This document shows, in pieces, positions 1 to 4,258 of a DNA stretch of 4,258 nucleotides (position 1 is its first letter; each line of letters starts with the position of its first letter). The notes beneath the pieces were generated by a model. The model was given only the letters and a program-made list of their open reading frames with translations. It searched no databases and was not told the DNA's origin. This stretch comes from a virus (lineage: Duplodnaviria > Heunggongvirae > Uroviricota > Caudoviricetes). Both the position numbers and the translations under genes were made by a program. The DNA is taken from IMG/VR virus record IMGVR_UViG_2706794694_000006. One strand, 5' to 3'.

Positions 1-78
1 GGTTATCGCTCGCCACGGGAATATCTGCGGCAGCGGGCTTGTAATGGGTTAAGTGATAACAGATGTCTGGAAATATAG
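1..78 (+). CDS. insD: IS2 transposase OrfB (InsD), C-terminal 25 codons only; 5'-partial, runs off the window start
   Basis: Frame 1 is open from position 1 to the TAG stop at 76-78. The peptide GYRSPREYLRQRACNGLSDNRCLEI matches the recalled end of InsD. Not in the ORF track because it has no start codon in the window. Confidence 0.7.
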   Translation, partial: GYRSPREYLRQRACNGLSDNRCLEI

Positions 79-89
79 GGGCAAATCCA
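1..89 (+). mobile_element. Right terminus of insertion sequence IS2 (IS3 family): 3' end of the transposase ORF plus the right inverted repeat; the body of the element lies upstream of the window
   Basis: Positions 1-89 match my recollection of the IS2 right end, which terminates in ...GTTAAGTGATAACAGATGTCTGGAAATATAGGGGCAAATCCA. Frame 1 translates as GYRSPREYLRQRACNGLSDNRCLEI then TAG at 76-78, the remembered C-terminus of IS2 OrfB/InsD. Sequence character changes immediately after position 89. Confidence 0.8.
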
Positions 90-257
90 ATCGTCGCCGT
101 ATTCCCGTATTAACAGAGACCGTAGCCCGACGGGGAACTCCTTCTGCGCGAGTGTGCGGGAATAATCAAAAACGATGCACACCGGGGTTACCGGGTACAC
201 ATATTTCATCATGCCAGCGAGTCCGGTTCTGGCACGGAAGAAACCGGACGTTATGAT

Positions 258-668
258 TTAGTGCGGAAATATTTGTGTAGTGTTCTGTATGTTCTCAGTA
301 AAGAGTAATGAATTATCAAAGGTATAGTAATACCTTTTGTTTTCGTGGATATTTGTAATCCATCTGAAAACCCCTGCTGTAGCAAGATTTTTCCTGTATT
401 CGTAAAATGATAACTCTCCTGATTTGAATCCTTTTAAGGTGGCTTCTATAAGGCATTTATTTTTTGAAAATCTTACATTTACAACCTTACCCTGTCCTTT
501 TATTAAAACCGTATTATCGTTTTCAAGAACAAGATGAATATTCTCTGTGGCTAAATAGTAAATGTAATGTGAGACATTGTGACGTTTTAGTTCAGAATAA
601 AACCAGTGATAGTTTAAATTATTTCGCACTTTATCGAATATTTGTTTAAAAATGGCAACCTGAGCCAT
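258..668 (-). CDS. Hypothetical protein, 136 aa (141 aa if the upstream ATG at 681-683 is used); AT-rich, moron-like accessory gene of unknown function
   Basis: A 142-codon open frame on the minus strand in DNA of roughly 30% GC, where stop codons are frequent, so an ORF this long is unlikely by chance. The second ATG (666-668) is preceded by GGAAGG with a 7-nt spacer, a good Shine-Dalgarno; the first ATG (681-683) has none. Stop is TAA at 258-260. No transmembrane segment or recognisable catalytic motif seen by eye; rich in Tyr, Asn and Lys. Confidence 0.55.
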
Positions 669-725
669 TGTAGTACCTTCCATGTGATATGAGGGGGCGT
701 AGTCTGCACGATTATCTAAATTGCT

Positions 726-959
726 TCAATCTGGTCTAACCTGTTTTCTGAGCAATTCAGTAATGTCACTCTTTTCTTTGTTTGCTTCAGGCGAAACTCT
801 TTTTTCTGAGCACAGTCTCCGGCGGCAGGCTTCAATGACCCAGGCTGAGAAATTCCCGGACCCTTTTTGAACAAGAGCGATGTTAATTTGTTCAATCATT
901 TGGTTAGGAAAGCGGATGTTGCGGGTTGTTGTTCTGCGGGTTCTGTTCTTCGTTGACAT
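726..959 (-). CDS. Arc/Mnt-type ribbon-helix-helix (RHH) DNA-binding protein, 77 aa
   Basis: Minus-strand ORF with ATG at 957-959 and TGA at 726-728. Residues 13-47 (RNIRFPNQMIEQINIALVQKGSGNFSAWVIEACRRRL) fit the Arc/Mnt pattern of N-[IL]-R-[FW]-P beta strand, helix A, G-[RS]-x-[NS] turn and helix B (compare P22 Arc FNLRWPREVLDLVRKVAEENGRSVNSEIYQRVMESF). Basic N-terminal arm (KNRTRRTTTR). Lies 42-57 bp upstream of the 136-aa gene on the same strand. Confidence 0.65.
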   Translation of the reverse strand: MSTKNRTRRTTTRNIRFPNQMIEQINIALVQKGSGNFSAWVIEACRRRLCSEKRVSPEANKEKSDITELLRKQVRPD

Positions 960-1106
960 GAGGTTGCCCTGTATTCAGTGTCGCTGATTTGTATTGTCTG
1001 AAGTTGTTTTTACGTTAAGTTGATGCAGATCAATTAATACGATACCTGCGTCATAATTGATTATTTGACGTGGTTTGATGGCGTAGATGCACGTTGTGAC
1101 ATGTAG

Positions 1107-1123
1107 ATGATAATTATTATCAT
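1107..1123. repeat. 17-bp perfect palindrome ATGATAAT-T-ATTATCAT just upstream of cosQ
   Basis: Read directly: 8-bp arms at 1107-1114 and 1116-1123 are exact reverse complements around a central T at 1115. Function unknown; could be a protein-binding site. Confidence 0.6.
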
Positions 1124-1128
1124 TTTGC

Positions 1129-1135
1129 GGGTCCT
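1129..1135 (+). other. cosQ-like element (GGGTCCT) of the lambda-type cos site
   Basis: GGGTCCT lies 23-29 bp upstream of the predicted top-strand nick, the same spacing I recall for lambda cosQ. Flanking sequence GGGTCCTTTCCGGCGATCCGACAGGTTACG resembles the lambda right end. Confidence 0.5.
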
Positions 1136-1158
1136 TTCCGGCGATCCGACAGGTTACG

Positions 1159-1170
1159 GGGCGGAAGGCG
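1159..1170 (+). other. cosN: 12-nt segment between the two terminase nick positions (cohesive-end sequence), here GGGCGGAAGGCG
   Basis: Sits between lambda-like flanks CGACAGGTTACG (right-end side, ending at 1158) and CGCGGGTTTTCGCTATTTATGA (left-end side, from 1171). The 12-mer differs from the canonical lambda overhang GGGCGGCGACCT in its right half. Nu1 start is 189 bp downstream, as in lambda. Confidence 0.7.
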
Positions 1171-1210
1171 CGCGGGTTTTCGCTATTTATGACAATTTTC
1201 CGGTTTAAGG

Positions 1211-1327
1211 CGTTTCCGTTCTTCTTCGCCGTAACCTAATGTTTTTATTTAAAACACCCCCTGAAAAGAAAGGAAACGACAGGTGCTGAAAACGGGCTTT
1301 TTGGCCTCTGTCGTTTCCTTTCTCTGT
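1211..1327 (+). promoter_or_regulatory. cosB: terminase small-subunit (Nu1) binding region with R3, IHF site I1, R2 and R1 elements
   Basis: R3 CGTTTCCGTTCTTCTT at 1211-1226; A/T-rich IHF-like segment at about 1231-1258; R2 in inverted orientation (AGAAAGGAAACGACAG, 1268-1283); R1 (CTGTCGTTTCCTTTCT, 1308-1323). R2 and R1 are a perfect 16-bp inverted repeat separated by 24 bp. Arrangement and position between cosN and Nu1 match lambda cosB. Confidence 0.75.
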
Positions 1328-1347: not shown

Positions 1348-1867
1348 ATGGAAGTCAACAAAAAGCAGCTGGCTGACATTTTCGGTGCGAGTATCCGTAC
1401 CATTCAGAACTGGCAGGAACAGGGAATGCCCGTTCTGCGAGGCGGTGGCAAGGGTAATGAGGTGCTTTATGACTCTGCCGCCGTTATAAGATGGTATGCC
1501 GAAAGGGATGCTGAAATTGAGAACGAAAAGCTGCGCCGGGAAGTTGAAGAACTGCGGCAGGCCAGCGAGACAGATCTCCAGCCAGGGACTATTGAGTACG
1601 AACGCCATCGACTTACGCGTGCGCAGGCCGACGCACAGGAGCTGAAAAATGCCAGAGACTCCGCTGAAGTGGTGGAAACCGCATTCTGTACTTTCGTGCT
1701 GTCGCGGATCGCAGGTGAAATTGCCAGTATTCTCGACGGGATCCCCCTGTCGGTGCAGCGGCGTTTTCCGGAACTGGAAAACCGACATGTTGATTTCCTG
1801 AAACGGGATATCATCAAAGCCATGAACAAAGCAGCCGCGCTGGATGAACTGATACCGGGGTTGCTGA

Positions 1868-1893
<26 letters not shown>
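1348..1893 (+). CDS. nu1: Terminase small subunit Nu1 (lambda gpNu1 family), 181 aa
   Basis: ORF-track protein MEVNKKQLADIFGASIRTIQNWQEQGMPVLRGGGKGNEV... is recognisable as lambda gpNu1, with the N-terminal winged-helix DNA-binding region and GGGKGNE nucleotide-binding segment. Same length as lambda Nu1, a few substitutions relative to my recollection. Stop TAA at 1891-1893. Confidence 0.95.

Positions 1894-4258
<2,365 letters not shown>

Follow-up and report, generated by a model that had tools for sequence, protein, structure and literature searches.

The window is a 4,258-nucleotide stretch of DNA from a Caudoviricetes record (IMGVR_UViG_2706794694_000006). As originally predicted, an IS2 end (1-89) and cos (about 1158/1159) flank two co-directional minus-strand genes. 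ORF calling places them at 726..959 (77 aa) and 258..683; both are present in the window. The left boundary of the region is the right end of an IS3-family element (1..89, plus strand), which from its terminal sequence we take to be IS2, 170 nt past the nearer gene. In a near-identical genome, a CDS annotated 'IS3 family transposase' covers window positions 1-78, and base 90 is where the matches of most genomes start. To the right, the end of lambda (J02459, position 48502) aligns opposite window position 1158 and cosN therefore starts at 1159. The cosN-equivalent of 12 bases (1159..1170, plus strand) reads GGGCGGAAGGCG, its lambda counterpart GGGCGGCGACCT. The packaging operon opens with an ORF at 1348..1893 (plus strand), a terminase small subunit gene of nu1/nohD type that is labelled nohD or DNA-packaging protein in matching genomes. 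The prophage here still has nu1, W and most of A (interrupted by N bases).

The two genes are separated by 57 nt and differ in composition. GC content is 31.4% (GC3 30.7%) in the gene nearer IS2, which belongs to the DUF1398 family, 44.4% in the second, ribbon-helix-helix (RHH)-like gene, 52.7% in nu1 and 54.0% in A, so the earlier figures of about 30, 45 and 55% were correct. Of 5426 complete E. coli genomes, 2446 contain the entire block. Rfam run over the sequence gave only sub-threshold matches to microRNA models, on the cosB inverted repeat.

The original prediction had called for profile searches of both proteins, and these place each in a named family (DUF3950 and DUF1398). The product of the AT-rich gene matches Pfam PF07166 over the full profile (positions 1-119 of 119; E 3e-43, 147 bits against a cut-off of 22 bits). 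It shares 78% identity with YdfO of E. coli K-12 and matches 2hh8_A (PDB 2HH8) over residues 1-140 (E 1.4e-69). The gene is thus a member of the ydfO/ybcV/ycgX family. The mechanical ORF runs to ATG 683 (141 aa); the likely start is ATG 668, giving a gene of 136 aa at 258..668 (minus strand). This start is favoured because a Shine-Dalgarno-like GGAAGG (676..681, minus strand), conserved in the window, Qin, DLP12 and lambda, lies 7 nt before ATG 668 and overlaps ATG 683, because lambda and DLP12 have a 1-nt indel that leaves the upstream ATG out of frame, and because K-12 ydfO and ybcV are 411 nt in RefSeq.

The DUF1398 protein has no hydrophobic or membrane segment (maximum KD19 0.39) and no signal peptide. 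Residues invariant in the family are mostly hydrophobic or aromatic, with no enzymatic or sensor motif. A structure model is poor (pLDDT 50) and its fold comparison uninformative. A HEPN reading, raised by a match to HEPN_AbiA_CTD (15.8 bits against a cut-off of 27 bits, E 0.014), was dropped because the N-terminal R-x4-H is not conserved in distant DUF1398 members. Two misleading database names can also be corrected. The labels 'head protein' (PHROG 413, RefSeq) and 'envelope protein' (an older lambda/COG name) are unsupported, since the gene is antisense to the late operon, lies outside the head cluster and encodes no hydrophobic segment. What proteins make up the lambda virion is well established.

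A candidate control block for the DUF1398 gene (701..745, minus strand) sits within the 3' end of the RHH-like gene. It combines a PdhR-type box, AACAGGTTAGACCAGAT (745-729, minus strand; agreeing with the PdhR consensus at 10 of 14 positions), with two alternative promoter-like readings from a promoter scan, TAGACC-16-GATAAT (738-711) and TTGAAG-17-CAGACT (729-701), both on the minus strand. Upstream homology between ydfO-type and ybcV-type genes begins about 85 nt upstream of the ATG and takes in a GGTnAGACC box, found at -77/-78 in all four of the window, Qin, DLP12 and lambda. A 14-nt repeat is common to 741-754 and 799-812. Genomic SELEX identified a PdhR site, AAcaGGTcagACCAgaT, at Qin ynfO-ydfO and another between ybcV and ybcW (PMC7660256). 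These sites would correspond to the boxes seen here, an equation made by similarity and not by coordinates. In the same study ybcV and ybcW mRNA was about 10-fold lower in a pdhR mutant (PMC7660256). Overexpression of T4 MotB raised ybcV and ybcW more than 1000-fold, which its authors link to altered H-NS repression (PMC7827196), and ydfO is reported to be responsive to [C2mim]Cl (PMC4077768). By analogy with the K-12 and BL21 prophages, PdhR and H-NS would be expected to control this allele too.

Nine nucleotides past the DUF1398 stop is a stem-loop, GTCCGGTT...AACCGGAC (221..249, minus strand), with no U-run. It is conserved in lambda, DLP12 and ev099, and in Qin a compensatory T-A to C-G change makes it GTCCGGCT...AGCCGGAC. 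Taken by itself, the fold z-score (-0.67) is not significant. The hairpin possibly marks the 3' end of the transcript or stabilises the mRNA.

The 77-residue product of 726..959 (minus strand) belongs to the YlcI/YnfO family, with matches to Pfam DUF3950 (E 2e-20, 72.8 bits against a cut-off of 25 bits) and to NCBIfam NF041551 YlcI_YnfO_N (35.2 bits against 30 bits). It differs from K-12 YnfO at two residues, and the gene is separated from Qin ynfO by a dS of 0.015. Its position is that of the family: in lambdoid elements, adjoining the packaging genes and divergent from them. In the lambda RefSeq record the gene is unannotated. The protein consists of a conserved core (codons 1-50, 810..959, minus strand) and a variable C-terminal tail (codons 51-77, 726..809, minus strand).

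The core comprises a basic N-terminal arm, a putative strand RNIRF, a helix, a GSGN turn and a further helix. It has a pI of 11.8 and is near-invariant among homologues, with the GSGN turn conserved. Compared with Stx-phage homologues, codons 1-50 show dN/dS of 0.07-0.11 at dS of 0.74-0.90, an unusually strong constraint; the DUF1398 gene shows dN/dS of 0.18-0.35 at dS of 0.38-0.67. Both genes are therefore real and under purifying selection, not chance ORFs. Within the RHH-like gene, the tail has 5 non-synonymous and 2 synonymous variable codons, the core 2 and 6.

The original prediction described this protein as a clear Arc/Mnt-type RHH protein. That assignment is plausible, with moderate support. 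The AlphaFold2 monomer model (pLDDT about 83) has an extended segment at 13-18 and helices at 19-32 and 34-52, reproducing the RHH layout, in which an N-terminal strand is followed by a helix, a tight G-x-S/T/N turn and another helix in about 45 residues. With hhalign, TRNIRFPNQMIEQINIALVQKG falls in register with the strand and helix A of Arc (pairwise P 0.012), and the best Foldseek matches of the model, to ParD antitoxins, are not significant (E 3-4). These matches are weak and concordant; a profile of the RHH-like alignment found no relevant match among PDB sequences, and hhalign of the alignment against CopG and ParD gave no match. The core is probably a ribbon-helix-helix DNA-binding domain, and the protein would be a small DNA-binding regulator.

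A promoter scan upstream of the RHH-like gene gave no convincing sigma-70 promoter. An inverted repeat, ATCAATTAATACG / CGTCATAATTGAT (1029..1061), lies 70-102 nt upstream of the start and is a candidate operator only. Exact ATCAATTA...TAATTGAT occurs in 71 of 80 IMG/VR loci of lambda cos type and also in lambda, Qin, DLP12 and ev099. The repeat is missing from the Stx-type loci L008 and L009, and at locus L076 it is lost and the RHH-like gene kept. The putative DNA-contacting residues are identical in Stx-type phages, where the candidate operator is absent. An operator common to lambda-type and Stx-type RHH-like genes was considered and rejected: their upstream regions are non-homologous and share short similarities at chance level only.

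The two genes are modular and uncoupled in their distribution. Among phage records the RHH-like core is found in 151 and DUF1398 in 43; of 5426 E. coli genomes, 4184 have the core and 5376 have DUF1398, so that at least 1192 have DUF1398 and lack the core. Stx phages carry the RHH-like gene adjoining HNH-terS, without DUF1398 and with no cargo behind it. Distant DUF1398 genes stand alone in the chromosomes of several genera, beside sopE, a fimbrial operon or an aryl-polyene cluster, and ycgX, another homologue of the prophage gene, adjoins bluR (PMC3509220). In lambda and DLP12 a divergent ybcW separates the two genes. A survey of the locus, which the original prediction had proposed, shows variable cargo behind the RHH-like gene, where related phages have DUF1398, ybcW, bor, other genes or none at all. 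The earlier view of the AT-rich gene as accessory, variable cargo is borne out by these counts, by the replaced slot and by its own upstream control block. The gene is present in some relatives and absent from others between conserved flanks, and its GC is deviant (31.4% against 53-54% for terminase), two features of morons. The RHH-like gene is near-identical to that of Qin and the adjoining DUF1398 allele is 75-78% identical (dS 0.38-0.67). Such mosaicism could be explained by recombination next to cos: in lambda-DLP12 recombinants 10 of 19 crossover junctions adjoin cos (PMC3945230). Recombinants of lambda selected with DLP12 ybcV::kan were all active where tested (PMC3945230).

The tail of the RHH-like protein follows the downstream cargo. 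Among 80 sampled IMG/VR loci, every 77-aa form has DUF1398 directly downstream, at +275/+276; tails of the 63/64-aa forms occur with ybcW, bor or, at one locus, no tested gene, and INEK-type tails accompany other cargo. The RHH-like gene ends in a TGA (726-728) that shares its frame with the DUF1398 ORF, and rare TGA-to-TGG changes yield fusions of 233 aa. Programmed read-through of this TGA was rejected, as few fusions exist, in 6, 37 and 2 contigs where the separate forms number about 1000 or more. In 3 of 65 DUF1398-bearing IMG/VR loci the offset differs by 1 nt, which would break the frame if real. The tracking of tail with cargo and the single in-frame TGA with rare natural fusions would also agree with the two proteins being functionally linked.

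We consider it probable that these are two separate, already catalogued lambdoid genes that are neighbours by chance. The RHH-like gene is a near-constant fixture of the lysis/packaging junction, antisense to late transcription. The variable slot downstream of it would here be occupied by DUF1398 as a self-contained, AT-rich moron cassette made up of PdhR-type box, promoter-like site, ribosome-binding site, 136-aa ORF and 3' hairpin. This cassette would be under host control, activated by PdhR and probably silenced by H-NS. Since its protein has neither a membrane segment nor invariant residues of catalytic type, it may bind a host or phage macromolecule in lysogens.

The two genes could instead form a type II toxin-antitoxin-like module, an autoregulated two-gene operon in which the tail of an RHH-like antitoxin neutralises a DUF1398 toxin. 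Such a layout was suggested in the original prediction, and a small RHH-like gene followed on the same strand, after 57 nt, by a 136-aa gene has that appearance. The constant association, in the sampled loci, of the 77-aa tail form with a DUF1398 gene directly downstream, the in-frame ORFs and the rare fusions would also suit it. However, the obligate co-inheritance of type II modules is not found: each gene occurs without the other (151 against 43 phage records), and DUF1398 stands alone in several genera and in K-12. In lambda and DLP12, the partner of ybcV is a 64-aa YlcI without this tail, and ybcW lies between the two. DUF1398 also has a control block of its own, a promoter-like site and a PdhR-type box being carried at the 57-nt gap. 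No toxin or antitoxin family in Pfam, NCBIfam or PADLOC matches either protein, the HEPN-like R-x4-H is not conserved across DUF1398, and we found no report of toxicity of a DUF1398 protein in the literature. The tail is under relaxed constraint and is not acidic (pI 8.2, against 9.4 for its partner). With the activity of the ybcV::kan recombinants added, the toxin-antitoxin proposal is not supported and must be regarded as highly improbable. A constant RHH-like gene ahead of a variable slot could also point to a dedicated repressor of whichever gene fills that slot, here DUF1398. The position of the DUF1398 control block, within the RHH-like gene at its 3' end, and the 14-nt repeat would agree with this. 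Yet Stx phages keep the RHH-like gene, its putative DNA-contacting strand unchanged, with no cargo behind it; the DUF1398 genes of lambda and DLP12 have the same control block 0.6 kb away, beyond ybcW; and the only regulator of the block reported from experiment is the host PdhR (PMC7660256). We regard dedicated repression as unlikely.

A role in anti-phage defence or superinfection exclusion, in which the DUF1398 protein, by itself or jointly with its RHH-like neighbour, protects the lysogen from other phages, would suit the position, orientation, AT-richness and variable slot, which are typical of prophage accessory genes expressed in lysogens, and DUF1398 is very common in E. coli. In PADLOC-DB 2.0, however, DUF1398 matches only Csx23 (E 0.025) and the RHH-like protein nothing; the literature that names DUF1398 gives no link to defence, the protein has no enzymatic or sensor motif, and many homologues lie in ordinary chromosomal contexts. 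In one phage-resistant APEC mutant (n=1) ydfO was lost, which if anything points against protection (PMC8711792). Protection of the lysogen is thus distinctly unlikely. Little credence can be given to a further proposal, that the core is a lysogen-expressed DNA-binding protein with a phage-level role, for instance excluding related phages or satellites through cos-proximal or host DNA, or acting with DUF1398 through the cargo-specific tail. If true, it would give the lambda right end a function nobody has assigned.

Two separate genes thus remain our preferred reading, and the pair is ordinary prophage content, already known and carried by about half of the complete E. coli genomes. The caveat in the original prediction that the ORFs might be annotated already was correct, as they are ynfO/ylcI (DUF3950) and ydfO/ybcV (DUF1398, PDB 2HH8). 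Near-identity with conserved, characterised lambda genes had been named as grounds for abandoning the idea of accessory cargo. The genes are conserved and annotated but not characterised, so that objection is half upheld. Neither family has an established function, though one sits in lambda and has a solved structure; the analysis removes a tempting toxin-antitoxin label. Two published claims about ydfO were set aside. The only phenotype published for it is that its over-expression raises oxidative-stress resistance (PMC4077768, citing PMC3105296). The main text of PMC3105296 names YfdK, YfdO and YfdS of CPS-53 and contains no 'ydfO'. The phenotype thus probably belongs to a different gene, through a mix-up of YdfO with YfdO. 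The gene has been scored essential by TraDIS only (PMC5821084); we do not accept it as essential on that sole support, and suspect that AT-rich DNA misled the method.

The closest known counterpart is K-12 Qin ynfO-ydfO (b4533-b1549), which has the same order, strands, 57-nt spacing and nohA/cos-side position. The PDB 2HH8 structure is that of Qin YdfO, to which the window allele is about 78% identical (dS 0.67). At the lambda/DLP12 right end the order is bor - ybcV (lambdap78) - ybcW (lambdap79) - ylcI - cos. It shares with the window the RHH-like core (98% amino-acid identity), DUF1398 (76%), the control block, the 3' hairpin and the cos-side position, and differs in the divergent ybcW between the genes and in a short YlcI of 64 aa. 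P22 Arc/Mnt, ribbon-helix-helix repressors of immI, resemble the RHH-like protein, a putative small phage-borne regulator, in their similar size and in being encoded antisense to neighbouring late genes, with an N-x-R-x-P strand motif, helix and G-x-S/N turn that is in register with Arc. They differ in having no significant sequence or profile match to the window protein, and lambda has no adjacent antirepressor. The bor and lom morons share with the DUF1398 gene the character of a small, probably autonomous cassette of deviant composition, antisense to late transcription and patchy in presence. Bor and Lom are, however, envelope proteins with known phenotypes, whereas the DUF1398 protein has neither signal peptide nor membrane segment.

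The region between the right end of an IS3-family element (1-89), which bounds it, and cos holds two minus-strand ORFs: an RHH-like ORF (726-959, 77 aa) and a DUF1398 ORF (258-683, 141 aa, or 136 aa from the ATG at 668). Going by its terminal sequence, the element is presumably IS2; in a near-identical genome an 'IS3 family transposase' CDS covers 1-78, and base 90 is where matches start in most E. coli genomes. Position 1158 aligns with the last base (48502) of lambda record J02459, and the cos nick is therefore placed at 1158/1159, followed by the cosB repeats, nu1, A and W. Judged by sequence, both ORFs are real genes. Against Stx-phage homologues, the first 50 codons of the RHH-like gene have dN/dS of 0.07-0.11 (dS 0.74-0.90); the DUF1398 gene has dN/dS of 0.18-0.35 (dS 0.38-0.67). 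ATG 668 is the likely start of the latter: GGAAGG lies 7 nt before it, the alternative ATG 683 falls within that ribosome-binding site, the equivalent upstream ATG is out of frame in lambda and DLP12 through a 1-nt indel, and the K-12 annotation gives both ydfO and ybcV a length of 411 nt. On this evidence the 136 aa of the original prediction is correct, as are its GC figures of about 30, 45 and 55% (measured: DUF1398 gene 31.4%, RHH-like gene 44.4%, nu1 and A 52.7-54.0%).

As a feature, the pair is neither new nor out of the ordinary. The suspicion that these might be annotated genes was well founded, since both are conserved and catalogued (Pfam and NCBIfam families, K-12 ynfO and ydfO), and uncharacterised; in the literature we found no paper giving a function to the YlcI/YnfO (DUF3950) or DUF1398 family. 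The RHH-like protein matches Pfam DUF3950 at 72.8 bits (cut-off 25) and NCBIfam YlcI_YnfO_N at 35.2 bits (cut-off 30). Its neighbour covers the entire Pfam DUF1398 profile (147 bits) and shares 78% identity with YdfO of E. coli K-12 (PDB 2HH8, NMR; E 1.4e-69). Of 5426 complete E. coli genomes, 2446 contain a DUF1398 - YlcI/YnfO - DNA-packaging protein block at ≥80% coverage, and the exact proteins occur in about 1000 or more contigs, Shigella sonnei among them.

Lambda RefSeq NC_001416.1 does not annotate its YlcI/YnfO-type gene (about 48109-48303, minus strand) despite conservation and strong purifying selection, and its entry for the lambda DUF1398 gene, lambdap78, is too long at 177 aa and bears the name 'head protein'. 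For DUF1398, neither 'head protein' (PHROG 413, RefSeq lambda record) nor 'envelope protein' is a supported label: its gene runs antisense to the late operon, and the protein lacks any hydrophobic segment. With some gene callers the RHH-like ORF continues upstream through 960-1230 (minus strand) to give a 168-aa 'phage protein' (P0137), an over-call across non-coding cos DNA. The RHH-like gene ends in a single TGA (726-728) that shares its frame with the DUF1398 ORF (intervening 669-725), and natural TGA-to-TGG variants, rare and found in a few dozen contigs, yield 233-aa fusion proteins (P0013, P0146, P0149).

By distribution, the two genes are not a unit. The RHH-like core is present in 151 records of the phage collection and DUF1398 in 43; in complete E. 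coli genomes the counts are 4184 and 5376. In Stx phages, BP-4795 among them, the RHH-like gene occurs without DUF1398, between Rz and an HNH-terS-terL module unrelated to the lambda terminase. Just 41 nt separate its start in these phages (BP-4795, 3094-3728 of its locus) from the divergently read HNH endonuclease gene, so that its promoter would have to be within the HNH gene. Among 80 IMG/VR loci picked for the closest RHH-like cores, DUF1398 follows in 65, the rest having ybcW without DUF1398, bor, or other genes. Distant DUF1398 genes (Salmonella, Pseudocitrobacter, Kluyvera and relatives) are solitary, beside sopE, a fimbrial operon or an aryl-polyene cluster, and none of those examined has a DUF3950 neighbour. 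K-12 ycgX, described as a further homologue, adjoins bluR (PMC3509220).

A toxin-antitoxin module, one of the readings originally offered, would fit the order of the genes, the association of the 77-aa tail form with DUF1398 among the sampled IMG/VR loci, and the one in-frame TGA between the ORFs with its rare TGA-to-TGG fusions. It is nevertheless very improbable: the two distributions are uncoupled, ybcW is interposed in lambda, and DUF1398 has a separate control block. Neither protein matched any toxin, antitoxin or PADLOC model; the HEPN_AbiA match of DUF1398 is weak and its R-x4-H is not conserved. Constraint on the RHH-like tail is relaxed (non-synonymous/synonymous variable codons 5/2, against 2/6 in the core), and tail and DUF1398 lack charge complementarity. 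An anti-phage role, though conceivable, has no support. Of the original prediction, the observation holds and the interpretation survives in part, as accessory cargo, in keeping with a variable slot and a cassette.

By sequence comparison, the DUF1398 gene is a cassette. Upstream regions of the ydfO type (window, Qin) are homologous to those of the ybcV type (lambda, DLP12) from about 85 nt ahead of the ATG onwards; this shared block comprises a promoter-like site and the ribosome-binding site as well as a GGT(C/T)AGACC box at -77/-78, and the DNA beyond it differs (RHH-like tail versus ybcW intergenic region). Beyond the stop, a stem-loop (221-249) is common to lambda, DLP12 and ev099, and in Qin one of its pairs shows a compensatory change; lacking a U-run, it is not a canonical terminator. 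Compared with Qin, dS is 0.015 for the RHH-like gene and 0.67 for the adjoining DUF1398 coding sequence, and alleles are therefore swapped inside conserved flanks. Lambda-DLP12 recombination is consistent with such exchange: identity is 98% across 3.3 kb of this region, 10 of 19 junctions adjoin cos, and all tested recombinants selected by DLP12 ybcV::kan were active phages (PMC3945230). A 14-nt direct repeat (CTGTTTTCTGAGCA / CTTTTTTCTGAGCA, 741-754 and 799-812) within the stretch of the RHH-like gene that encodes the tail is translated in two different frames on the coding strand, and may be a scar left by recombination at the edge of the cassette.

The upstream protein is probably a ribbon-helix-helix protein, though support for the clear Arc/Mnt type first described is modest. 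An AlphaFold2 model (pLDDT about 83) has an extended segment at 13-18 and helices at 19-32 and 34-52; the GSGN turn and RNIRFP strand are invariant or near-invariant among homologues. With hhalign, TRNIRFPNQMIEQINIALVQKG aligns weakly in register with Arc QFNLRWPREVLDLVRKVAEENG (pairwise P 0.012). The top Foldseek matches are ParD antitoxins at a non-significant E of 3-4, and a profile search of PDB sequences gave no match. The core has a pI of 11.8. Our committed view is of a putative small DNA-binding regulator with a fixed place where the lysis and packaging genes meet. A promoter scan upstream of its gene identified none; an inverted repeat (1029-1061) is conserved in cos-type phages and absent from Stx-type phages, and is therefore only a candidate operator.

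Genomic SELEX placed PdhR sites at Qin ynfO-ydfO (AAcaGGTcagACCAgaT) and between ybcV and ybcW, whose mRNAs fall about 10-fold in a pdhR mutant (PMC7660256). Window 745-729 reads AACAGGTTAGACCAGAT and matches the PdhR consensus at 10/14, as does the Qin site; the published sites would be the boxes seen here, equated by similarity and not coordinates. T4 MotB overexpression raises ybcV and ybcW >1000-fold, which its authors link to altered H-NS-dependent repression (PMC7827196), and ionic liquid induces ydfO strongly but transiently (PMC4077768). By analogy, we infer that PdhR, H-NS-dependent and ionic-liquid inputs would act on the window genes. The only phenotype credited to YdfO, oxidative-stress resistance on over-expression (PMC4077768), appears to come from confusing ydfO (Qin) with yfdO: the cited work names YfdO of CPS-53, and 'ydfO' is absent from its main text (PMC3105296). 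The DUF1398 structure model is poor and its fold search uninformative. We commit to the view that this is a putative binding protein, non-enzymatic and brought in on a host-regulated moron; the sole basis for 'non-enzymatic' is that the invariant positions of the family are mostly hydrophobic or aromatic.

At the cosN position (1159-1170) the 12 bases are GGGCGGAAGGCG, against GGGCGGCGACCT in lambda (6/12 differ); 7 of the 80 IMG/VR loci share this variant, the remaining lambda-type loci have the lambda sequence and one locus (L076) is divergent. CGTTTCC(G/T)TTCT repeats lie at 1211-1222 and 1312-1323, with one more copy in inverted orientation at 1266-1278, and an inverted repeat of 26 nt lies at 1267-1323; we take them to be cosB R sites for the small terminase subunit, and sub-threshold Rfam microRNA matches to them are spurious. 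A 179-N run (2492-2670) splits gene A, the terminase large-subunit gene, whose sequence is not readable there. The deposited phage ev099 genome (NC_049953.1) opens at 1-33 with TCGTCGGCAGCGTCAGATGTGTATAAGAGACAG, which we take to be a Nextera transposase adapter, an assembly artefact, so its record ends do not fix cos exactly.

The closest known arrangement is that of K-12 Qin, where nohA is followed by ynfO (77 aa) and ydfO (136 aa), these last two spaced by 57 nt as in the window. DLP12 and lambda, in contrast, have ylcI (64 aa), a divergent ybcW and then ybcV.
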